Assembly (NCBI GenBank): GCA_963768205.1
Contig: CAVYHB010000003.1
Location: 55,346 to 119,345 of the forward strand
DNA length: 64,000 nt
Origin: an uncultured Alphaproteobacteria bacterium
Lineage (GTDB): Bacteria > Pseudomonadota > Alphaproteobacteria > Rhodobacterales > Rhodobacteraceae
Reading direction: 5' to 3'
In this document: piece by piece, positions 24,802 to 54,101 of the stretch
How the letters are laid out: each line of letters opens with the position of its first letter
Numbering within the stretch: position 1 is the first letter of the stretch
Notes under the pieces: model-generated
Told to the model about the DNA's origin: nothing
What the model saw: the letters and a program-made list of their open reading frames with translations, nothing else
Databases searched by the model: none
Made by a program: the position numbers and the translations under genes

Positions 24802-25197
24802 TCAGACCATGTCTTCGGCCAGATGTGCCAGGTCGGCAAGCGCCTTGGCCGTGGCGTCGCGCGCCGTGTCCGTGGTCTGGGCGTGGGCCTCTTCGGCCTG
24901 CTCGCGCAGCCGGTCCAGGAACTCGGGCGTCACGTCGGCGCGCGGCACCGCCTGCTCGGCCAGCACCGAGACGCTGGTCGGAGTAACCTCGGCAAACCCG
25001 CCCGACACAACGTATTCCTGGGTGCCTTCGCTGCCCGTCGCCTTGACCACGCCGGGGCGTAGTGTGGTGATGATCGGCATGTGATCCGCCATCGCGGTCA
25101 TGTCGCCCTCGGAACCGGGGATCTGCACTTCGCTGGCCTGCATCGAGGCCAGCTTGCGCTCTGGCGAGACCAGGTCGAACTGTATCATATCGGCCAT
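24802..25197 (-). CDS. atpC: F1 ATP synthase epsilon subunit.
   Basis: 131-aa ORF reading [16 protein letters not shown]...GGFAEV, last gene of the atpHAGDC order. Confidence 0.93.
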
Positions 25198-25209
25198 GAT
25201 GACCCTTCC

Positions 25210-26640
<1,431 letters not shown>

Positions 26641-26659: not shown

Positions 26660-27532
26660 CTAGAGCGCCTCGGCGCCGGAAATAATTTCGATCAGCTCGT
26701 TGGTGATGACGGCCTGGCGGCTGCGGTTGTACTCGATCGTCAGCCTGTCGATCATGTCACCCGCGTTGCGCGTGGCGTTGTCCATGGCGCTCATCCGGGC
26801 GCCCTGCTCGGAGGCGGCGTTCTCCAGCAGCGCCGCGAAGATCTGCGTCGCCACCGCGCGCGGCAGCAGCTCCGCCAGGATCTCGTCCTCGCCGGGTTCG
26901 TATTCGTAGAAGGTCGACGGCGCGTTCTCGTCCTGTTCGAACTTGGCGGGGATGACCTGCACTTCGGTCGGGACCTGGCTGATCACCGACTGGAACGTGT
27001 TGTAGAAGATCGTCGCCACGTCGAATTCGCCGGCCTCGAACCGGGTCAGCACTTCCTTGGCCACGTCTTGCGCATTGGCGTAGCCGACGCGCTTCACGTC
27101 GCTCATGTCGATGTGCTTGACGTTCAGCTTGCCGTAGTCGCGGCGCAACTGTTCGCGGCCCTTCTTGCCGACCGTCAGGACCTTCACGGTCTTTCCGGCA
27201 GCCTGCAGCTTTTCGATCTTTGCCTTGGCGGCGCGCACGATGGTCGAGTTGAAGCCACCGCAAAGCCCCCGCTCCGAGGTCATCACGACGATCAGTTGGG
27301 TCTGATCGCTGCCGGTCCCGGTCAGCAGCTTCGGGCCACCCTCGTTGCCGCCGGCGCCCGCCGCAAGCCCGGCCATCACGGCGTTGAACCGTTCGGTATA
27401 GGGGCGCGCCATTTCGGCCGCTTCCTGGGCGCGGCGCAGTTTCGCAGCCGCGACCATCTGCATGGCCTTGGTGATCTTCCGCGTCGATTTGACGCTGGCG
27501 ATCCTGTTCTTCAGGTCCTTGAGGTTTGGCAT
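26660..27532 (-). CDS. atpG: F1 ATP synthase gamma subunit.
   Basis: Intact 290-aa ORF beginning [36 protein letters not shown] and ending [15 protein letters not shown]. Confidence 0.97.
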
Positions 27533-43354: not shown

Positions 43355-44776
43355 TCAACTGGCCAGCACGTTGCGGAACTGCCAGGGATCGGTTTCATCG
43401 ATATCCTCGGGGAACTGGTCCCAGCGGTCGGTCAGCGGCGTCCAGTCGGTATAGTGCGCCTCGACCGGACCAAGGTAGGGGCGCTGCACTTCCAGGCACC
43501 TTGCGTGATCCATCTCGTCGGTTTCGACAATCCCGGCCTTCGGGTTCTCCAGCGCCCAGACCATGCCCGCCAGCACCGCAGAACTGACCTGCAAGCCGGT
43601 TGCGTTCTGGAACGGCGCCAGGTCGCGGGTCTCTTCCATCGACAGGCGCGAGCCGTACCAGAGCGCATTTTTTTCATGGCCGTAAAGCAGCACGCCCAAC
43701 TCGTCGATGCCCTCGACGATTTCGTTCTCGTCAAGGATATGGTGTTTCGCCTGCGCCCGTCCCGCACCGAAACATTCGTGCAAGCTGAGCACCGCGTCGT
43801 CGCTGGGGTGATAGGCGTAGTGGCAGGTCGGGCGGTAGTCCGGGTTCGCGCCGGAGCCGACGGTGTAGTAATCGGAAATCGAGATCGCCTCGTTATGCGT
43901 CACCAGAAACCCGAATTGCGGCCCCGGCGTCGGGCACCATGTGTGCACGCGGGTGATGGCACCGGGGCGTTCGAACCAGATGCCGGCCTGGCAGCCGGTT
44001 TCGTAGCTGTGCGACGTCTCGGGCATCCATGTCTCATGCGTCCCCCAGCCAAGCTCGGCGGGCTGGAAGCCCTCCGAGATGAACCCTTCGACCGACCAGG
44101 TGTTCACGAACACGCCGCGCGGCTTCGGCTGGCGGCGGGCCTGAGTGTCACGCTCTGCGATATGGACGCCCTTGACGCCGAGGGACTGCATCAGCTTTGC
44201 CCATCCCTCGCGATCGACTGGGACGGTTGCGTCGCGCCCGGTATCGCGGGCCAGCGACAGCATCGCCTCCTTGACGAACCAGGACACCATGCCGGGGTTG
44301 GCGCCACAGCAACTGACCGCCGTGCTGCCGCCCGGGTTGGCTGCCTTTTCGTCGCGCACTTTCTGGCGCAGGGCATAATTGGTGCGGTCGGCATTGTCGG
44401 GGGTCTCGAAATAGAACCCGGCCCAGGGTTCGACAACGGTGTCGATATAAGGCACCTCCATTTCGCGGCAGAACGTCATCAGGTCGAGCGACGAAGTGTC
44501 GACGGAAAGGTTCACGCAAAAGCCGCGGCCCCGCTCGAAAACCCCGCCCAGCACCTCGCGGTAATTGTCCTTGGTGATCGCCGTTTCCAGATGCCGGATG
44601 CCGCGCTGTGCAAGGAAGTTGTGCGCCGAATGCTGCGGCTCGATCACCACCATCTTTTTTGCATCATATTCGAAATGCCGTTCGATCAGCGGCAGCGTGC
44701 CACGCCCGATCGACCCGAAGCCGATCATCACGATGGGGCCGTCGATGTGGGCGTAGACGGGGTAATCGGTGGTCAT
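43355..44776 (-). CDS. hss: Homospermidine synthase (bacterial, saccharopine-dehydrogenase-like).
   Basis: Intact 473-aa ORF carrying IVMIGFGSIGRGTLPLIERHF, CCGANPGMVSWFVKEA and GTHETWMP. Confidence 0.9.
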   Translation of the reverse strand: MTTDYPVYAHIDGPIVMIGFGSIGRGTLPLIERHFEYDAKKMVVIEPQHSAHNFLAQRGIRHLETAITKDNYREVLGGVFERGRGFCVNLSVDTSSLDLMTFCREMEVPYIDTVVEPWAGFYFETPDNADRTNYALRQKVRDEKAANPGGSTAVSCCGANPGMVSWFVKEAMLSLARDTGRDATVPVDREGWAKLMQSLGVKGVHIAERDTQARRQPKPRGVFVNTWSVEGFISEGFQPAELGWGTHETWMPETSHSYETGCQAGIWFERPGAITRVHTWCPTPGPQFGFLVTHNEAISISDYYTVGSGANPDYRPTCHYAYHPSDDAVLSLHECFGAGRAQAKHHILDENEIVEGIDELGVLLYGHEKNALWYGSRLSMEETRDLAPFQNATGLQVSSAVLAGMVWALENPKAGIVETDEMDHARCLEVQRPYLGPVEAHYTDWTPLTDRWDQFPEDIDETDPWQFRNVLAS

Positions 44777-44892
44777 CGGTGTCGCTCCGGGGTTGCGGTG
44801 GCCTGCATCTTCGGCCCAGATGGGCAGGATCGGCGCGCTTCTAATCGGAGAGCCGCGCGGCGACCACCCGAAAACGCCACGCTGGGAGGCGA

Positions 44893-45366
44893 TTGATGCC
44901 GGAGCTGCAAGAGGTCGCCTACGAAAACCTGTCCGCGATCCTCGCGCTGAAGGTAAAGGACAGCCAGCAAGGCCTCGTCGCCTCTGCCGAGCGCACCGTG
45001 GCCCAGACCGCCTATGCCCCCTTCACCTGGACGCGCGGGATATTCGAGGGCGGCAAGGCCGTGGGCCTGATCGCCCTGGTCGACATGCGGCCCGACCACC
45101 CCGAGGTCGAGCCGGAGGATCCCGAGGACGCCGTCTTTCTGTGGCGGCTGATGATCGACGCTGCCGCACAGGGCAAGAGCTACGGGCGGTTCGCGATGCA
45201 GGCGGCCTTCGCCCAAGCCCGCGCCTGGGGCCGCGGCACCTTCTGCACAAGCGTCGTGCCACGCGACGACTCGGCGCTCGGGTTCTACGAACGGTTCGGC
45301 CTGCGCCCCACCGGGCGCATCATCGACGGCGAACTGTTCCTGCAAGGCCCCGTCCCGGCGGACTAA
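44893..45366 (+). CDS. GNAT-family N-acetyltransferase (possibly polyamine-directed).
   Basis: 157-aa ORF carrying LWRLMIDAAAQGKSYGRFAMQAAF...GFYERFGL, the acetyl-CoA binding motif A pattern. It is divergent from hss. Confidence 0.7.
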   Translation: MMPELQEVAYENLSAILALKVKDSQQGLVASAERTVAQTAYAPFTWTRGIFEGGKAVGLIALVDMRPDHPEVEPEDPEDAVFLWRLMIDAAAQGKSYGRFAMQAAFAQARAWGRGTFCTSVVPRDDSALGFYERFGLRPTGRIIDGELFLQGPVPAD

Positions 45367-45397
45367 TCCGGCCCTGCCCTTGCCGTTCCCGCCATGA

Positions 45398-45412
45398 GAA
45401 CATATGATGAAC
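45398..45412 (+). promoter_or_regulatory. Alphaproteobacterial-type SOS (LexA) box.
   Basis: GAACatatgatGAAC is an exact GAAC-N7-GAAC direct repeat. It overlaps the first ATGs of the radical SAM ORF. Confidence 0.65.
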
Positions 45413-46648
45413 ATCATGGTCATGAGTCTGAACAAAAAGTTAGCGATTCTGTCGGATGCCGCCCGCTACGACGCCTCCTGCGCGTCCTCCGGCACCACCC
45501 GGCGCGACAGCCGCGACGGCAAGGGGCTGGGCTCGACCGAGGGCTCAGGCATCTGCCACGCCTATGCGCCCGACGGGCGCTGCATCAGCCTGCTGAAGAT
45601 CCTGATGACGAACTTCTGCATCTACGACTGCGCCTATTGCGTGAATCGCGTCTCCTCCAACACCCCCCGCGCGCGGTTCAGCGTCGAGGAGGTCGTCCAC
45701 CTCACCACCGAATTCTACCGCCGCAACTATATCGAGGGGCTGTTCCTGTCCTCCGGCATCATCCGCTCGCCCGACAAGACCATGGAAGACATGGTCAACA
45801 TCGCCCGCACCCTGCGGACGCGTGAGAATTTCCGCGGCTACATCCACCTGAAAACCATCCCCGACGCCGCCCCCGACCTGATCGAACAGGCCGGCCTCTA
45901 CGCCGACCGCCTGTCGATCAATGTCGAACTGCCGACCGACATGGCGGTAAAGGCCTATGCTCCCGAAAAGAACCCCGGCACGATCCGCGCCGCCATGGGC
46001 GACGTAAAGGCGCGCCGCACGGTGGCTAAGGACCGCAGCCACACCGGCAAGCGCCCGCCGAAATTCGCCCCCGCCGGCCAGTCGACGCAAATGATCGTCG
46101 GCGCCGACGGCTCGAACGACGCCACGATCCTCGGCCAGGCGACCCGGCTTTACGGCGATTACGGGTTGAAGCGCGTTTACTATTCGGCCTTCTCGCCGAT
46201 CCCCGACGCCAGCGCCAAACTGCCGCTGATCAAGCCGCCGCTGGCGCGCGAGCACCGGCTTTACCAGGCCGACTGGCTGCTGCGCTTCTACGGCTTCGAT
46301 GTGGACGAGATCACCGGGGTCGCGACAGGCGGCAACCTCGACCTCGACATCGATCCGAAACTCGCCTGGGCCCTCGCCCACCGGGCGCTGTTCCCGCTGG
46401 ACGTGCAGCGCGCCGACCGCGAGATGCTGCTGCGCGTGCCGGGGTTCGGCACGCGCACCGTGGGGCGGATCCTGGCCACCCGGCGGCAGCGGACCCTGCG
46501 CTACGAGGATCTGCAGCGGATGGGCGCGGCGCTGAAAAAGGCGCGGCCCTTCATCACGGTGCGCGGCTGGACACCCGGGGCGCTGACCGACAGCGCCGAC
46601 TTGCGCGCCCGCTTCGCACCGCCGGCGGAGCAACTGACGCTCTTTTGA
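45404..46648 (+). CDS. Putative DNA modification/repair radical SAM protein (TIGR03916-like).
   Basis: The protein carries AILSDAARYDASCASSG, the radical SAM cluster motif CIYDCAYC, and the helix-hairpin-helix-like tail LLRVPGFGTRTVGRIL. The true start is probably ATG 45416 or 45422, downstream of the SOS box. Confidence 0.85.
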   Translation: MMNIMVMSLNKKLAILSDAARYDASCASSGTTRRDSRDGKGLGSTEGSGICHAYAPDGRCISLLKILMTNFCIYDCAYCVNRVSSNTPRARFSVEEVVHLTTEFYRRNYIEGLFLSSGIIRSPDKTMEDMVNIARTLRTRENFRGYIHLKTIPDAAPDLIEQAGLYADRLSINVELPTDMAVKAYAPEKNPGTIRAAMGDVKARRTVAKDRSHTGKRPPKFAPAGQSTQMIVGADGSNDATILGQATRLYGDYGLKRVYYSAFSPIPDASAKLPLIKPPLAREHRLYQADWLLRFYGFDVDEITGVATGGNLDLDIDPKLAWALAHRALFPLDVQRADREMLLRVPGFGTRTVGRILATRRQRTLRYEDLQRMGAALKKARPFITVRGWTPGALTDSADLRARFAPPAEQLTLF

Positions 46649-48156
46649 TGGAAACGGTCAACCTGCCCCGGATCGGCACCGAAAGTGCCTGGCGCGATGC
46701 GGCGCGCGGCCTGATGCACCGCGCGGTGCCGCCGGAGCATGTGCTTTGGATGTTCGCAGAGAATTCGACGGACGATCTTTTCTCTTGCCCGGTTCGCGCA
46801 GCGGACCGGGCCGCACCCGCCCGCCCCCCAGACGGGGGCGATTGCGCCCCCTCGGGCGGACCCGGCCCTCTGTACCGAAGTCGTTTCTCGATCTCGCGGA
46901 AACCGTCGTCTGGCACGCCGATCCCGAACGGTTCGCCCGGCTTTACGCCTTTCTCTGGCGGCTGCAGGACACGCCCCGCCTGATGGCTGACCGCGGAGAC
47001 GCCGACCTGGCGCGGTTGCGGCTGATGGAAAAGAACGTCCGCCGCTGCGCGCACAAGATGAAGGCCTTCGTGCGGTTTCGCGATGTCGGCCAGCAGGACG
47101 GGCGCCGCCAGTTCGCCGCCTGGTTCGAGCCGACGCATCACACCGTCGAGCCCACCGCGCCTTTCTTCACCCGCCGCTTCGCCGACATGGACTGGATCAT
47201 CGCGACACCTGACGTCACGGCGCGGTTCGAAAACGGCCGTCTGTCGCTGGAGGACGGACACCCGAAACCCGACTTGCCCGAGGACAGCGCAGAGCAGCTT
47301 TGGGGCACCTATTTCCGCAACATCTTCAATCCCGCACGGCTGAAGGTGCAGGCGATGACCTCTGAAATGCCGCGCAAATACTGGAAGAACATGCCCGAGG
47401 CGCGGCACATCCCGCAGCTTATCGCCGGGGCCGAGGCCCGCGCCCGCGAGATGCAGCTTGCCGCCCCGACCCTGCCACCAGTGCGCGCGGAAAAGATCCT
47501 GCAGCGCGCTCAGGCGACGCAAGGATGTGCCGTGCCGGAGACCCTGGACAATTTGGCGCGCGGCCTGCGCGGCTGCACCCGCTGCCCGCTTTACCGCGAT
47601 GCCAGGCAGGCGGTGCCGGGCGAAGGGCCGCCGGACGCCCGGCTGATGATCGTGGGCGAGCAGCCGGGGGATCAGGAAGACCAGCAGGGCCGGCCGTTCG
47701 TCGGGCCCGCCGGCCAGCTTTTCGACCGGGTAGCGCGGGAGGCGGGGCTCGACCGGCGGGCGGCCTATGTCACCAATGCGGTGAAGCATTTCAAGTTTCG
47801 CAGCGCAGGGCAAGCGCCGCCTGCACCAGCCGCCGAACCGCACCGAGATCGAGCATTGCAAATGGTGGCTGGAGGCCGAGATCGAGCTGGTGAAACCGGA
47901 TCTGATCCTGGCGATGGGAGCGACGGCCCTGCAAAGCCTGACGGGCAGCCGCGAGGGGTTGCTGAAGCGGCGCGGCCAGATCGAGGCGACCGGGTACGGC
48001 CCGGTCTTCATAACGGTGCATCCCAGCTATCTGCTGCGGCTGCCGACGGCGGAATTGCGCGACGCGGAAACCGCAAAGTTCCGGGCCGATCTGTCACGGG
48101 TATCGGATTCTGTTGGCAGCCTGAGAACGCCTCTCGCAAGATGCAGAATTTTCTAG
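46645..48156 (+). pseudogene. DUF4130 domain fused to a family-4-like uracil-DNA glycosylase superfamily domain (TIGR03915/TIGR03914-like); 2 frameshifts (46.75-46.87 kb and ~47808).
   Basis: The start overlaps the radical SAM stop (ATGA). The DUF4130 part reads ERFARLYAFLWRL...HKMKAFVRFR...FAAWFEPTHH. The UDG part reads CTRCPLY...PGEGPPDARLMIVGEQPGDQED..GRPFVGPAGQL...YVTNAVKHFKF, then GKRRLHQPPNRTEIEHCKWWL...ILAMGATA...FITVHPSYLLR in ORF 47890..48156. Confidence 0.8.
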
Positions 48157-48196
48157 AAAATTCTGGCCCGTGGAAAAATTTTCCAGAAAATTTTTC
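48144..48196. repeat. Cluster of three AT-rich palindromes between the convergent UDG-like and rpsD genes.
   Basis: The first is CAGAATTTTCTAGAAAATTCTG (48144-48165), a perfect 22-bp palindrome that contains the UDG stop TAG. The second is TGGAAAA-A-TTTTCCA (48171-48185). The third is GAAAA-T-TTTTC (48186-48196). Confidence 0.85.
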
Positions 48197-48215
48197 GCCC
48201 CGCCGCACCGACATG

Positions 48216-48240
48216 AAAAAGCCGCGCCCAAAGGCGCGGC
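48216..48240 (-). terminator. Rho-independent terminator of rpsD.
   Basis: The minus strand reads GCCGCGCC-TTTG-GGCGCGGC followed by TTTTT, about 28 nt after the rpsD stop. Confidence 0.8.
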
Positions 48241-48267
48241 CCGTGCAATGTCGGATGAGAAACCCGA

Positions 48268-48889
48268 TCAGTTCTTGGCGTAGAATTCGACGACCAGGTT
48301 CGGCTCCATCACCACCGGGTAGGGCACGTCGCCCAACGTCGGAGTGCGGGTGAAGGTGGCGGTCATCTTGTTGCCGTCGACGTCCAGGTAGTCGGGCACG
48401 TCACGCTCGGCCAGGCCTTGCGGCTTCCAGCACGATGGCCAGTTGCTTGGACCGGTCGCGGATCTCGATCACGTCGCCTTCCTTGACGCGGTAGCAGGGG
48501 ATGTTGACCCGCTTGCCGTTCACCGTGACATGGCCGTGGTTCACGAACTGGCGCGCGGCGAACATGGTCGGCACGAACTTGGCGCGGTAGACCACCGCGT
48601 CGAGGCGGCGCTCCAGCAGGCCGATCAGGTTCTCGCCGGTGTCGCCGCGGACCCGCTCGGCCTCGGCATAGATGCGGCGGAACTGCTTTTCGGTCAGGTC
48701 GCCGTAATAGCCCTTCAGCTTCTGCTTGGCGCGCAGCTGGATGCCGAAGTCGGACAGCTTGCCCTTGCGGCGCTGGCCGTGCTGGCCGGGGCCGTAGTCG
48801 CGGCGGTTGACCGGGGATTTCGGACGACCCCAGATGTTCTCGCCCATCCGGCGGTCGAGCTTGTACTTGGCAGAGGTGCGTTTGGTCAC
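48268..48889 (-). pseudogene. rpsD: 30S ribosomal protein S4; one indel near 48420.
   Basis: A GTG start at 48889 follows GAAGGAG. The protein begins [37 protein letters not shown]. The C-terminus [46 protein letters not shown] lies in a second frame. The length is 622 nt. Confidence 0.95.
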
Positions 48890-49049
48890 CGTCTGATCTC
48901 CTTCGTTCAGGTTTCGAAGGGCGTTGTCCTCTCTCCGGATTTGGCCGGAGCGACAGGGATCCCCTTGCGGGGGCCACCAACACCAACAAATGCATGCCCC
49001 GGCCATCGCTGACCGGGACGGGGGGCTTATACGCCGCGAATCCCGGGTG

Positions 49050-50111
49050 TCAATGCCGGTAGCGCAGGATCGCCGCCTCGGAGGTGGTCAGGGCGCGGCG
49101 CGCATAGGCGCCGTAGACGCTGGGATCGGCGTCGATACCGGGCACACAATCCAGCAGGGCGTCGCGCTGATCGGGCTGCACGTCGCCCAGCGGCATCGAG
49201 GCCGGGTGGAATGTCTCGGTCTCCAGCCCGTTGGCAAAGACGACCTGGTGCCGGTCGAGCAGCAGGTGGACATAGGTGATCTCGCTCACGCTGCGGTCGA
49301 CCATGATCGTGCGGTCGTTGATCAGGTCGCGCGCCATGACCAGCACCTCGGTCGTGTTGAACAACGTCAGCGCCTGGGCGCCCTTTACCAGCAACCGGTG
49401 CCGGGGCGAGACCAGCAGGTCGCCGTCGGGCATGTCGATCCCCATCGCCCCGCTGCGAATGCGGATCGGGCGCAGTTCCGGCATCGCCACGAACCGCGCG
49501 CCGCTCATCCTGCGGCGGCCGATCCAGCGGATCTGCTGCGGTCCGTCGTCCTTGGTCAGGACCAGGTCGTCCTCTTGCAGGTCGCGGACCAGCCGGGGGC
49601 CGTCGGGCGTGGCGATCCGGGTGTCCGGGGTGAAGCAGATGACCGAGGGCACGGCGTCGCCGGTCCGGTTCAGGTGGACCACGTGGTCGGTCACATGAGT
49701 CACCCACAGATCGACCCCGGCGGGCGGCATCTGGTCGAGGAACATGACCAGCGGCGGCCTTCCGTCGGACACGTCGATCAGGGTGGCGGTGTAGCGGTGC
49801 AGCCCGTCGGTGACGGCAAACCCGGTATCGAGGACCGGGTCATCCGGATCGGGGATGTTGGCAAGCGGACCGTATCCGACAGAATCGCCCAAAAGGCGGC
49901 GCACCGCCTTGGACGCGTGCGCCCTCAGGTTCGCCGTCTCCTCGGAATGGCCCAGGACCAGAACGCTGTTGGGGCCATCCATGCGCACGGTCTCTCCGGA
50001 CCATTGCCACGTCGCCCCGACGATCAACGCGTCAAGCGGCGCTGCCGCAAGACCGTCCAGTTCCGTCTGTGACCAAGAGATGACAAACGTGCCACGAAAG
50101 CCCGTCATCAT
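49050..50111 (-). CDS. Hint (hedgehog/intein-like) domain protein with an unrecognised N-terminal domain of about 155 aa.
   Basis: Intact 353-aa ORF reading [43 protein letters not shown]...SPRHRLLV...[20 protein letters not shown], the Hint_2-type pattern common in Rhodobacterales. Confidence 0.75.
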
Positions 50112-51212: not shown

Positions 51213-53517
51213 TCAGCCACATTTCGAATAGCCGCAGTTGCCGCAGGTCATGCAGCCTTCGATCATCCGCATCTCGAAGCTGCCGCAGGACGAACAGGCC
51301 GCCCCGCGTCCGCCGAGATTGACCACCTCGGCCTGCGGGATCGGATTTCAGCCCCATCCCCTCGCCGTCGATGAAACCGATGGCGATCAGGTGCCGCTCG
51401 ATCACGCCGCCGATGGCCGCCAGGATCGCTGGGGATGTACTTGCCCTGCATCCAGGCCCCGCCGCGCGGATCGAACACCGCCTTCAGTTCCTCGACCACG
51501 AAGGACACGTCGCCGCCGCGCCGGAACACCGCCGAGATCATCCGGGTCAGCGCCACGGTCCAGGCGAAATGCTCCATGTTCTTGGAGTTGATGAAGATCT
51601 CGAACGGCCGCCGCTGCCCGCCGACCATGATGATCGTTGATGGTGATGTAGATCGCATGTTCGCTGTCGGGCCATTTCAGCTTGTAGGTATTGCCCTCCA
51701 GCTGCTGCGGCCGGTCCAGCGGTTCGGACATGTAGACGACATCGCCATGCGGCATCGCGCGGTTCGGCGGGCTCATGTGCGACGACTTCGGGCGCGCCTC
51801 GTCCGTCTTCTTCTCTCGGAAACACTCAGAACCGATCCGGTCACATCGTTCGGCCGGTAGGTCGTGCAGCCCTTGCAGCCCTGGTCCCAGGCCGCCATGT
51901 AGACGTCCTTGAACGCCTCGAAGGAGATATCCTCGGGGCAGTTGATCGTCTTGGAAATCGACGAATCCACCCATTTCTGCGCCGCCGCCTGCATCCGCAC
52001 ATGGTCCAGCGGCGCCAGCGTCTGGGCGTTGACGAAATGCTCCGGCAGCTCGGCGTCGCCGAACTTTTCGCGCCACATCTGCACGGCGTAGTCGACCACC
52101 TCTTCCTCGGTGCGGTGCCGTCCTTCTGCAGCACCTTGCGGGTGTAGGCATAGGCAAAGACCGGCTCGATCCCCGACGACACGTTGCCCGGCGTAAAGCG
52201 AGATCGTCCCGGTCGGCGCGATCGAGGTCAGCAGCGCGTTGCGGATGCCGTGCTCGGCGATGGCCTCGCGCACGTCCGCGTCCATGTGCGTCAGCGACCC
52301 GCTCGCCAGGTAGGGCTCGGCATCGAACAGCGGAAACGCCCCCTTTTCCTTCGCCAGATCGCACCGAGGCCAGATAGGCGGCGCGGGCGATGCGCGTGCA
52401 GCCAGTGCTCGGTCTGACGCGCCGCCTCCTCCGAGCCATAGCGCAGGCCCACCATCAGCAGCGCATCGGCCAGCCCGGTCACGCCCAGCCCGATCCGCCG
52501 CTTGGCCTGCGCCTCCTCGGCCTGCTGCGGCAGCGGAAAGCGCGAGGCGTCGACAACGTTGTCCATCATCCGCACGGCGACGGCGACCAGATCGGCCAGC
52601 GCCGCCTCGTCGATGCCCGGCGCCGTCCTCGAACGGCCGATCCACCAGCCGCGCCAGGTTGATCGAGCCCAGCAGGCAGGCGCCATAGGGCGGCAGCGGC
52701 TGTTCGCCGCAGGGATTGGTCGCGGCGATCGTCTCGCAGTAGGTCAGGTTGTTCAGCCGCGTTGATCCGGTCGATGAAGATCACGCCCGGCTCGGCATAA
52801 TCATAGGTCGCGCGCATGATCCGGTTCCACAGATCGCGCGCCTGAACCGTGCGGTAGACCTTGTCCGTCGAAGACCAGATCCCACGATCCGTCCGCCTTC
52901 ACCGCCGTCCATGAACGCATCGGTCACCAGCACCGAGACGTTGAACATGCGCAGCCGCGCCGGGTCGGACTTGGCCGCGATGAACTCCTCGATATCCGGG
53001 ATGATCGCAGCGCATCGTCGCCATCATCGCGCCGCGGCGCGCTGCCGGCCGACATGATCGTGCGGCACATCGCGTCCCAGACATCCATGAACGAAAGCGG
53101 CCCGCACGCATCCGCCGCCACGCCCTTCACCTCCGCGCCCTTGGGCCGGATGGTCGAAAAATCGTAGCCGATGCCGCCGCCCTGCTGCATGGTCAGCGCG
53201 GCCTCCTTCAGCCCCTCGAAGATGCCGCCCATGCTGTCGGGGATCGTGCCCATGACGAAGCAGTTGAACAGCGTCACCGACCGCGCCGTGCCGGCCCCGG
53301 CCGTGATCCGGCCCGCCGGCAGGAACCTGAAATCCTCAAGCGCGTCGTAGAACCGGTCTTCCCAGTCGCCGGGCGTGTCCTCGACCTTTGCCAGCGCGCG
53401 GGCGATGCGTCGCCAGGTATCCTCGACCGTCTCGTCCACCGGGGTGCCGTCGGCCTGCTTCAGCCGGTACTTCATGTCCCAGATCTGTTCGGCGATGGGG
53501 GCGGCGAAACGGGTCAT
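51213..53517 (-). pseudogene. nrdJ: Adenosylcobalamin-dependent (class II) ribonucleotide reductase; at least 10 frameshifts.
   Basis: The N-terminus is MTRFAAPIAEQIWDMKYR. Conserved blocks are spread over all frames: TLFNCFV; GGGIGYDFSTIRPKG; RGAMMATLRCDHP-like; [17 protein letters not shown]; KRRIGLGVTGLADAL; TSIAPTGTISL; SSGIEPVFA; SISKTINCPED; KGCTTYRPN; and PFEIFINSKN. The Cys-rich C-terminus is CSSCGSFEMRMIEGCMTCGNCGYSKCG-stop at 51213. Confidence 0.9.
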
Positions 53518-53669
53518 GCGGATGCGGTTCCAATCGGCTGTGGGCAGGCTATCTAGGCTAGCGGCTGCGCAGCGACGGACCAATCCAAAAGCGACGGATA
53601 CAAGGTTTTGTCGGTGGCTGTGGCCGAATCGGCGCAGGGGTTTTACACTACCACATGTAGGGGGAACGA

Positions 53670-54101
53670 TTGAAGAACAAACTGCATCTGGTCAAGTTGT
53701 CGGTAGGCACCGAAAGCGTCGAAAGCCTGGAGGACTGGCACCGCAATCCGCGGTCGCAGGGCCCCGACGGGCTGCCGCGCCATGTCACGCGGATGTGGCC
53801 GAAACGCGCGGCGGAATTGCTGGACGGCGGCAGCATCTACTGGGTGATCAAGGGTATTGTCCTCTGCCGCCAGCGCATCCTGCGGCTGGACGAAGTGACG
53901 CGCGGCGACGGCATCCGCCGCTGCGCCATCGTGCTGGACCCGAAGCTGGTGCGCGTCGCCGCCACGCCGAAGCGGCCGTTCCAGGGCTGGCGCTACCTGC
54001 CCGGTGCCGAGGCGCCGCCCGACCTGCGCGGAGCCCGCGCGTCCGAGGATGAATTGCCGCCCGACCTGAATGCCGCCCTGGCCGAGATCGGCGTGCTCTA
54101 G
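53670..54101 (+). CDS. DUF1489 family protein.
   Basis: A TTG start follows AGGGGGA. The 143-aa protein reads KLHLVKLSVGTESVESLEDW...GGSIYWVIKG, as in alphaproteobacterial DUF1489. Confidence 0.65.
   Translation: MKNKLHLVKLSVGTESVESLEDWHRNPRSQGPDGLPRHVTRMWPKRAAELLDGGSIYWVIKGIVLCRQRILRLDEVTRGDGIRRCAIVLDPKLVRVAATPKRPFQGWRYLPGAEAPPDLRGARASEDELPPDLNAALAEIGVL

Follow-up and report, generated by a model that had tools for sequence, protein, structure and literature searches.

The closest described relatives of the locus examined here are two-gene operons of the COG4277-COG1573 type, catalogued as a "putative UDG base-excision repair operon", and NCBIfam has models for all three of their parts (TIGR03916, rSAM_link_UDG; TIGR03915, SAM_7_link_chp/DUF4130; and TIGR03914, the UdgX-family domain). 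PMC8565304 describes SOS regulation of this UDG/HhH-protein operon, through lineage-specific LexA motifs, as earlier reported in Alphaproteobacteria and Verrucomicrobia; the same paper extends it to Bacteroidetes, and cites binding and expression data for other Alphaproteobacteria. Acinetobacter has no LexA, and there the DdaA DNA-damage regulon includes the radical SAM and TIGR03915 genes (PMC12392091). In several phyla the family responds to DNA damage, through unrelated regulators. An AlphaFold 3 model of a DUF4130-radical SAM pair (bioRxiv 10.64898/2026.08.19.745780) shows a predicted interface of 3,666 Å2, and its channel is narrow, favouring single-stranded nucleic acid. The statement in the first-pass annotation that both lesion and chemistry are unreported still holds for the searchable literature, in which we found no substrate, product or mutant phenotype for the radical SAM family; the searchable open-access literature likewise yielded no paper naming both UdgX and radical SAM.

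UdgX itself is biochemically well studied and serves as a tool for uracil detection. It excises uracil and then remains covalently bound to the abasic site (PMC4787834, PMC10359453), and its motif A is GEQPG, with Q in place of the A/G of family 4 (PMC10359453). The M. smegmatis enzyme stands alone, at about 210 aa, with neither a radical SAM nor a DUF4130 gene as its neighbour; the M. smegmatis UdgX query sequence had its best database match at 97% identity. To our knowledge, the only DNA-repair radical SAM enzyme that has been characterised well is spore photoproduct lyase (SplB), whose homologs are SOS-regulated in some lineages, as the COG4277 operon is. Abasic sites are also shielded by the SRAP/HMCES/YedK proteins. 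These share with UdgX an SOS-associated covalent attachment to abasic sites (SRAP-SOS link, PMC3765255), but the likeness is a functional analogy only, as their fold is unrelated and they form a Cys thiazolidine link rather than the His-C1' link that UdgX makes after base excision.

The locus in the window (the whole 64,000-nucleotide stretch of DNA analysed) is an ordinary copy of this widespread two-gene DNA-damage-response operon (Table 1); it is one more ortholog, and nothing beyond that, of a type with published SOS control. Its novelty was overstated, all of its parts being in NCBIfam and its regulation in print (above). All three models score above their cut-offs here, LexA control is predicted, and there is no substantive difference from the catalogued cassette; as given, this copy carries indels that break gene 2 and a 59-nt palindromic insert. 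The radical SAM gene, which has a 49-nt gap on its 5' side, and the gene for a DUF4130-UDG-fold fusion protein are translationally coupled, the radical SAM protein being adjoined by its TIGR03915/DUF4130 partner with gene 2 beginning at the gene 1 stop codon. The two genes had been said to overlap as ATGA; they do overlap, but the junction reads TGATG and only 1 nt, at 46648, is shared. In 56 of 75 orthologous loci the stop of one gene and the start of the next overlap by 1 or 4 nt, and gene order, coupling and fusion all agree with the orthologs. The cassette lies in core-genome synteny in relatives (tyrA-hisC-homospermidine synthase-GNAT-cassette-rpsD), and an Rfam scan of 44500-49200 returned sub-threshold noise only.

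Table 1. Features of the two-gene operon, in window coordinates
Feature	Position	Strand	Basis or remark
-35-like hexamer TTGCCG	45380-45385	+	sigma-70-like promoter scan
LexA operator (alphaproteobacterial SOS box), GAACATATGATGAAC	45398-45412	+	exact match, predicted
-10-like hexamer TATGAT, within LexA box spacer	45403-45408	+	promoter scan
Radical SAM gene (TIGR03916, rSAM_link_UDG)	45416-46648	+	probable start; longest ORF 45404-46648
CIYDCAYC (CxxxCxxC cluster)	45617-45640	+	in radical SAM gene
Putative HhH motif VPGFGT	46436-46453	+	in radical SAM gene
Gene 2 segment 1, N-terminus of TIGR03915/DUF4130 protein	46648-46831	+	tblastn of intact orthologs
20-nt insertion relative to closest relatives, frameshift 1	46832-46851	+	DNA alignment with L081 and L082
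Gene 2 segment 2, other frame: rest of DUF4130 and N-terminal UdgX half	46852-47800	+	TIGR03915, Pfam DUF4130, TIGR03914
Rest of DUF4130 domain	about 46872-47402	+	within gene 2 segment 2
CTRC	47574-47585	+	gene 2 segment 2
GEQPG	47655-47669	+	gene 2 segment 2
NAVKHF	47775-47792	+	gene 2 segment 2
Extra base, frameshift 2, between HFKF and GKRRLH	47801 (approximate)	+	tblastn, DNA alignment
Gene 2 segment 3, C-terminal UdgX half	47802-48156	+	PDB matches to UdgX, TIGR03914
KRRLH	47812-47826	+	gene 2 segment 3
EHCKWW	47851-47868	+	gene 2 segment 3
HPSYLLR	48019-48039	+	gene 2 segment 3
Gene 2 stop as given	48154-48156	+	end of segment 3

As first annotated, an exact GAAC-N7-GAAC direct repeat lies in front of the radical SAM gene, and this architecture, a tetranucleotide that recurs in the same orientation after a 7-nt spacer, is indeed the alphaproteobacterial LexA operator type (PMC3323433, PMC8565304). 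The pattern occurs three times in the window where 1.73 matches are expected, an excess that is not significant (at least three in 25 of 100 shuffles); at the window rate about 0.001 matches would be expected in the 49-nt intergenic gap that holds the box. The annotation had named lack of conservation upstream of orthologs as grounds for rejecting the operator. Conservation is nearly complete: an exact box is present at 79 of 80 alphaproteobacterial loci and a box with a single mismatch at the last one, the orientation is identical in 77 of those 79, and the consensus of the ortholog boxes is GAACATATAGTGAAC. Around the 80 orthologous loci, 82 exact boxes fall in the 80-nt upstream zones, whereas the 703 kb of flanks contain only 15. 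Two distant representatives, examined for other LexA motifs, lie on short contigs whose upstream DNA is not informative. The box was also described as overlapping the first ATG codons of the gene; it does cover those at 45404 and 45407 of the longest open reading frame, but alignment with orthologs makes the ATG at 45416, 3 nt past the box, the probable start.

The only sigma-70-like match found by consensus scan in 45200-48400 is TTGCCG-17 nt-TATGAT (9 of 12 positions). A TTG is present 16-19 nt 5' of the box in 58 of the 66 class-A orthologous loci; a second class, of 12 loci, has its -35 directly next to the box, and TATAGT is the commonest hexamer at the -10 position of the orthologs. Because the box overlaps this conserved -10 element and an ATG usually follows closely (0-7 nt 3' of the box in 63 of 75 loci), the arrangement suggests that the box is part of a functional, LexA-occluded and probably leaderless promoter. 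LexA binding, damage induction and the site of the transcription start at this locus are what we infer from the DNA sequence.

The radical SAM protein scores 579.3 bits against TIGR03916 (cut-off 343.5), and about 918 clusters at 50% identity match it with E below 1e-30. The CIYDCAYC cluster that had been noted is present, and each of its cysteines (C68, C72 and C75) is kept in 90% or more of 50 diverse family members. The HhH-like tail also ascribed to the protein is weak by sequence (Pfam HHH_5, E=1.4e-4 and 22.7 bits with a gathering score of 27 bits; RuvA HhH, E=0.07 in a PDB sequence search), but an AF2 model built from 50 diverse sequences (pLDDT 87) gives a confident helical C-terminal domain there, and homologs of the protein carry HHH_3 matches. 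An alternative AF2 model from 32 close homologs (pLDDT 56) was discarded. The protein has no meaningful sequence match in the PDB, and a Foldseek search of the PDB with its fold returned generic barrel matches only (TM ≤0.44). Since it is thus without an informative relative, its substrate is a guess.

Gene 2 is disrupted as given, and its product was recovered as three segments (Table 1). Against TIGR03915 (cut-off 112.25) the middle segment reaches 187.5 bits and the rejoined protein 209.6 bits, and Pfam DUF4130 matches with E=7.7e-38; DUF4130 has no meaningful sequence match in the PDB. For TIGR03914 the two halves score 177.6 and 126.6 bits, each below the cut-off of 189.95, and the protein rejoined by frameshift correction scores 316.4 bits. 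The best PDB matches of the third segment are M. smegmatis UdgX (6ajo and 6ail, E about 3e-16), and its GKRRLHQ aligns with the GKRRIHK of 6ajq and 6ajo, including the crosslinking histidine, a loop residue kept in almost all fused orthologs. Across the whole domain the CxxC, GEQPGDxED, NAVKHFKF, GKRR(I/L)H and HPS(S/Y)LLR elements of M. smegmatis UdgX (6ajo, 6ail, 6io9) align. The GEQPGDQED (from 47655) and HPSYLLR motifs reported earlier were both found, the latter matching motif B, HPS(S/A)(L/V)(L/V)R, with Y at the fourth position. The alignment thus shows that the domain retains GEQPG, the crosslinking histidine within GKRRLH, and HPSYLLR.

The domain had been called family-4-like. The fusion to DUF4130 and the UDG fold are both there, but by sequence the UDG half is of the UdgX family, of the predicted DNA-crosslinking type, and not canonical family 4. 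Canonical family-4 UDG (UDGa) has GE(A/G)PG and lacks the KRRIH insertion, whereas this domain has GEQPG and a KRRLH insertion, and we rejected that assignment; the rejoined protein, at 126.6 bits, barely passes the 125.3-bit cut-off of the broad UDG_fam4 subfamily model. The earlier suggestion that the UDG half may serve as a sensor instead of working as a turnover glycosylase is in keeping with the UdgX assignment, since UdgX stays covalently on the abasic site after uracil excision. Unlike the standalone M. smegmatis protein, the domain here forms the C-terminal third of a fusion protein, about 490 aa long, that is coupled to a radical SAM gene under a LexA box. Most alphaproteobacterial loci examined likewise have a UdgX domain fused to the radical SAM partner protein behind a LexA box; in about 10 of 80 loci gene 2 encodes DUF4130 only, with no UdgX domain within 4 kb. 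A UdgX fused to a radical SAM partner behind a LexA box gives a concrete, testable context for both proteins.

We favour the reading that this is a LexA-repressed, SOS-inducible two-gene operon with a UdgX-tethered radical SAM mechanism, and give it as a whole a probability of roughly 60%. The parts and their families, the conserved arrangement of operator and promoter, the coupling and the fusion come from the present analysis; UdgX crosslinking, the predicted DUF4130-radical SAM complex and SOS regulation elsewhere are taken from other work. As the operator overlaps the -10 element, LexA bound there would block RNA polymerase; transcription would start at or a few bases from the ATG, probably giving a leaderless or near-leaderless mRNA. 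Gene 1 would encode a radical SAM enzyme that binds DNA through a helix-hairpin-helix domain at its C-terminus, and gene 2 a fusion of a DUF4130 adaptor with a uracil-DNA glycosylase domain of the UdgX type. DUF4130 would dock on the radical SAM enzyme, and the UdgX domain would locate a uracil in DNA (during SOS, a likely source is deaminated cytosine in exposed single-stranded DNA) and cut out the base, the histidine of the KRRLH loop then keeping the domain covalently on the abasic sugar. This adduct could protect or mark the site and tether the radical SAM enzyme to it, and 5'-deoxyadenosyl-radical chemistry might follow on the DNA at or next to the site; the substrate and the whole of the radical step we infer. 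The modules can occur apart, and therefore the radical step cannot strictly depend on the UdgX adduct. A bolder and quite tentative proposal is that UdgX has its missing physiological partner in the radical SAM-DUF4130 module, which would process or release the covalent adduct or else act, at stalled forks, on the shielded abasic or uracil site of single-stranded DNA. Were this true, the SOS response would gain a new repair pathway, and spore photoproduct lyase would be joined by only one further kind of DNA-repair radical SAM chemistry.

A different view of the radical SAM protein makes it a spore-photoproduct-lyase-like "dark photolyase" for UV pyrimidine photoproducts, with the UDG then removing uracils that arise from deaminated dimer cytosines. 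Control of the operon by DNA damage in several lineages would suit such a role, and SplB is, as is presumed of the protein here, a CxxxCxxC radical SAM enzyme that acts on DNA. We nevertheless consider this unlikely, as the two have no detectable specific relationship in sequence or structure: spore photoproduct lyase is absent from the NCBIfam matches up to E=5 (the next matches, MqnE, ThiH, CofH and HydE, share the cluster motif only, with E above 0.003) and from the top 50 Foldseek matches in the PDB. The HhH tail and the obligatory DUF4130 partner set SplB further apart, true SplB (COG1533) is an SOS gene separate from COG4277 in PMC8565304, and a photolyase role leaves unexplained why the UdgX domain should be of the crosslinking kind rather than a turnover glycosylase. 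The pair could instead be a damage-induced DNA-modifying or mutagenic system, acting for example on thymine or uracil in single-stranded DNA, and not a repair system at all. [quoted passage not shown] However, there is no known modification product, no conserved catalytic residues were found in DUF4130 (bioRxiv 10.64898/2026.08.19.745780), and fusion to a uracil-excising domain better fits lesion processing, which makes this reading improbable.

The state of gene 2 raises a further alternative, that it is a recent pseudogene in this strain whose frameshifts are real, so that the radical SAM gene alone, if anything, is functional. The two mutually cancelling frameshifts noted in the first-pass annotation are seen in the sequence as given, in which translation from the ATG at 46648 reaches a stop at 46983, and gene 2 could therefore be inactive in this strain. 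The inserted 20 nt are homopolymer-rich with a GGGGGCG/CGCCCCC hairpin, and such an insertion is no simple homopolymer miscall. On the other hand, the three segments have no internal stops and the protein is 73-77% identical to intact orthologs, and both gene 2 (484 aa) and rpsD are intact in relatives with a 95% identical radical SAM protein. Essential or core genes elsewhere in the window are frameshifted as well, with atpD running through three frames, many changes in nrdJ and +1 nt at 48424 in rpsD. Sequencing error is the likely cause, because the closest relatives are intact and these other genes are also affected, and we think real inactivation rather improbable. By far the least probable is that the cassette is an anti-phage system in which covalent binding by UdgX traps uracil-containing phage DNA. 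The UdgX-uracil-DNA crosslink is irreversible, and one Moraxellaceae regulator governs both DNA-damage and defence genes; against this, the PADLOC defence-system library gave zero matches, the core-genome synteny conserved in relatives is unlike that of a mobile defence island, and LexA control is kept across the entire class.

Sequence quality at the locus is poor. The 59-nt insert is AT-rich, lies at the 3' end and is absent from the closest relatives. As for the other GAAC-N7-GAAC matches in the window, the one at 26924 is inside the atpG coding sequence and was rejected as a chance match, and the one at 53664 falls between nrdJ and a small + strand open reading frame (53670-54101) that we take to be possibly DUF1489-like.

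The cassette of a radical SAM gene followed by a DUF4130–UDG gene (gene 2) behind a GAAC-N7-GAAC box was correctly described in the first-pass annotation. Its reading as an SOS-controlled repair cassette is supported by the conservation of the box at orthologous loci (below) and by published SOS control; the cassette is not new, since NCBIfam models exist for all three of its parts, the DUF4130–radical SAM–UDG association was remarked in 2013 (PMC3765255), and, according to PMC8565304, earlier work had reported SOS regulation of the operon in Alphaproteobacteria (within the Caulobacter SOS regulon) and in Verrucomicrobia, to which that paper adds Bacteroidetes. In Acinetobacter, which is without LexA, the radical SAM and TIGR03915 genes rely on DdaA, an activator of the WYL family (PMC12392091). 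No substrate, product or mutant phenotype of the cassette is reported in the literature searched, and any mechanism for the radical step is a guess. The refinements added here are the UdgX identity of the UDG domain, the promoter layout, the lack of a specific tie to spore photoproduct lyase and a reading of the frameshifts as probable artefacts.

The 49-nt gap between the GNAT acetyltransferase ORF and the cassette contains GAACATATGATGAAC at 45398-45412, a GAAC-type direct repeat of the kind described as the LexA motif of Alphaproteobacteria (PMC3323433, PMC8565304). Taken alone, the window's count of such repeats is within chance (3 matches vs 1.73 expected, with at least 3 in 25 of 100 shuffles), and one of the two other sites is internal to the atpG coding region. 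It is position and conservation upstream of orthologs that set this box beyond chance. The first-pass annotation had staked its reading on such conservation, and among 80 orthologous loci (Rhodobacterales, Rhizobiales, Acetobacteraceae and other Alphaproteobacteria; radical SAM proteins 64-87% identical to the window's) an exact GAAC-N7-GAAC lies directly 5' of the radical SAM gene in 79, 77 of them oriented as in the window and 2 inverted, and the remaining locus has a box with one mismatch. The 80-nt upstream zones of these loci hold 82 boxes vs 15 in 703 kb of flanking DNA, and the consensus is GAACATATAGTGAAC.

A 6-nt inverted repeat, CCATGA ... TCATGG with central CATATG (45391-45419), brackets the window's box and may be due to chance. 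A second exact GAAC-N7-GAAC, GAACGATTGAAGAAC at 53664-53678 (+), is found where nrdJ (-) and a 143-aa, possibly DUF1489-like ORF (53670-54101, +) diverge; this site may be a further LexA operator or a chance match.

TTGCCG and TATGAT form the sole sigma-70-like site in 45200-48400. In class A orthologs a TTG stands 16-19 nt 5' of the box at 58/66 loci and the commonest hexamer within the box is TATAGT; the 12 class B loci have the -35 directly adjoining the box, with a -10-like element 3' of it. The box-to-ATG distance is 0-7 nt in 63/75 loci, most frequently 2 nt, and a Shine-Dalgarno sequence therefore has no space. From this layout of box, promoter and ATG we infer that LexA would occlude the promoter and that the transcript would be leaderless or nearly so. 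The start codon that appears to fit the ortholog layout is ATG 45416 (MVMSLNKKLAIL...), which aligns with ortholog N-termini; ATG 45404, within the box, does not.

The radical SAM TGA shares one base with the gene 2 ATG at 46648, so that the junction reads TGATG rather than the ATGA overlap given earlier, and 56/75 loci keep such a stop/start overlap, 1 or 4 nt long. Most orthologs have the DUF4130–UdgX fusion (470-500 aa). At about 10 of the 80 loci the partner consists of DUF4130 alone and no UdgX domain occurs within 4 kb, yet the LexA box is present; the system can thus do without its UdgX module. Such partners, ~278 aa long and 3' of the radical SAM gene, occur in loci L004, L005, L007, L010, L024, L030, L031 and L062. 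Here UdgX is fused to DUF4130, whereas the characterised mycobacterial UdgX is standalone and has neither a radical SAM nor a DUF4130 neighbour; in the Mycolicibacterium loci L085, L087 and L088, likewise without these two genes nearby, UdgX adjoins alpha/beta-hydrolase, GntR regulator and, in some strains, catalase genes. The open-access UdgX literature searched makes no mention of a radical SAM link, probably because the characterised protein is standalone and lacks these neighbours. A 2026 preprint (bioRxiv 10.64898/2026.08.19.745780) predicts a high-confidence DUF4130–radical SAM complex; it describes a nucleotide-binding fold that resembles RecJ but has no catalytic residues, and a channel narrow enough to suit single-stranded nucleic acid. 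On these grounds the core unit is the radical SAM protein plus DUF4130, with UdgX a frequent, physically tethered accessory.

Gene 2 matches TIGR03915/DUF4130, the UDG superfamily and, most specifically, TIGR03914, whose present NCBIfam name is 'UdgX family uracil-DNA binding protein'. Its three frame segments, rejoined into a 495-aa protein, score 316 bits on TIGR03914 (cut-off 190) and 210 on TIGR03915 (cut-off 112); the broad family-4 model gives 126.6 bits against a cut-off of 125.3. The glycosylase domain had been called family-4-like; the UDG fold holds, family 4 is barely passed and UdgX fits best. The best PDB matches of the C-terminal segment are M. smegmatis UdgX structures (6ajo, 6ail, 6io9 and others; E ~3e-16), and CxxC, GEQPGDxED, NAVKHFKF, the KRRLH loop with its histidine (GKRRLHQ against UdgX GKRRIHK) and HPSYLLR all align. 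Judged by its sequence, the UDG half of gene 2 is UdgX. The UdgX loop histidine attacks the sugar once uracil is excised, forming a covalent protein-DNA link, and its mutation returns ordinary glycosylase turnover (PMC4787834, PMC10359453). It is kept in almost all fused orthologs; in one, L049 (Gluconacetobacter liquefaciens), GTERIQ replaces KRRxH and HPS motif B is also lost. This lineage may have lost crosslinking ability, since histidine to glutamine restores turnover in M. smegmatis UdgX.

The radical SAM protein scores 579 bits on TIGR03916 (cut-off 343.5), and C68, C72, C75 and the N-terminal Cys22 are nearly invariant in the family. A helix-hairpin-helix signal near its C-terminus is weak (HHH_5 E=1.4e-4, below the gathering score; RuvA E=0.07). 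A sequence search of the PDB found no relative, and for a confident AF2 model from a diverse alignment (pLDDT 87) the structural matches are confined to radical SAM barrels of a generic kind (HydE, PFL-AE, biotin synthase, lipoyl synthase, HydG, ThiH, viperin), all at TM <=0.44. The label 'SplB-like' (PMC3765255) is unsupported beyond superfamily membership, because spore photoproduct lyase is absent from the top 50 structural matches and from NCBIfam matches up to E=5.

Each intact ortholog aligns across three frames of gene 2. In the closest relatives, L081 and L082 (radical SAM proteins 95% identical, same synteny), gene 2 (484 aa) and rpsD are intact, and relative to them the two cancelling frameshifts noted in the first pass are indeed present, as +20 and +1 nt (together 21 nt). 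The gene 2 segments have zero internal stops and the protein is 73-77% identical to orthologs. The 20-nt insertion contains a perfect 7-bp GC hairpin (GGGGGCG-ATTG-CGCCCCC) with C and G homopolymer runs on either side. Core genes of the window are frameshifted too: atpD (25150-26640, -) runs through three frames within ~40 codons near 26000-26100, nrdJ (B12-dependent ribonucleotide reductase, about 51400-53583, -) changes frame repeatedly, and rpsD carries one base too many. The window thus appears to carry clustered indel errors, and any pseudogene call in it calls for caution; the gene 2 frameshifts are most likely such errors, and gene 2 may, less probably, be a very recent pseudogene.

Features of the cassette region (indels relative to L081/L082)
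Feature	Position	Strand	Context
GNAT acetyltransferase ORF	44893-45366		upstream of cassette; Pfam Acetyltransf_1 on syntenic L081/L082 gene
-35-like TTGCCG	45380-45385	+	sigma-70-like promoter scan
-10-like TATGAT	45403-45408	+	inside box spacer; 17-nt spacer from TTGCCG
CIYDCAYC	45617-45640	+	radical SAM gene
+20 nt	46832-46851		frameshift 1, gene 2; variable, poorly conserved loop of TIGR03915 domain
+1 nt	~47801		frameshift 2, gene 2
+1 nt	48108		gene 2 stop codon shifted
+59 nt, AT-rich	48140-48198		gene 2 3' end
Palindrome 1 of 59-nt insert	48144-48165		CAGAATTTTCT/AGAAAATTCTG
Palindrome 2 of 59-nt insert	48173-48196		GAAAAATTTTC-ca-GAAAATTTTTC
+1 nt	48424		rpsD (48268-49006, -); last 48 codons out of frame

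The 59-nt insert, absent from L081 and L082 and without a match in an Rfam search, is AT-rich amid 65% GC DNA. The gene 2 stop codon as given falls in this insert, which separates gene 2 from the terminator of the convergent rpsD and consists of two tandem units of ~30 nt, each with one perfect palindrome.
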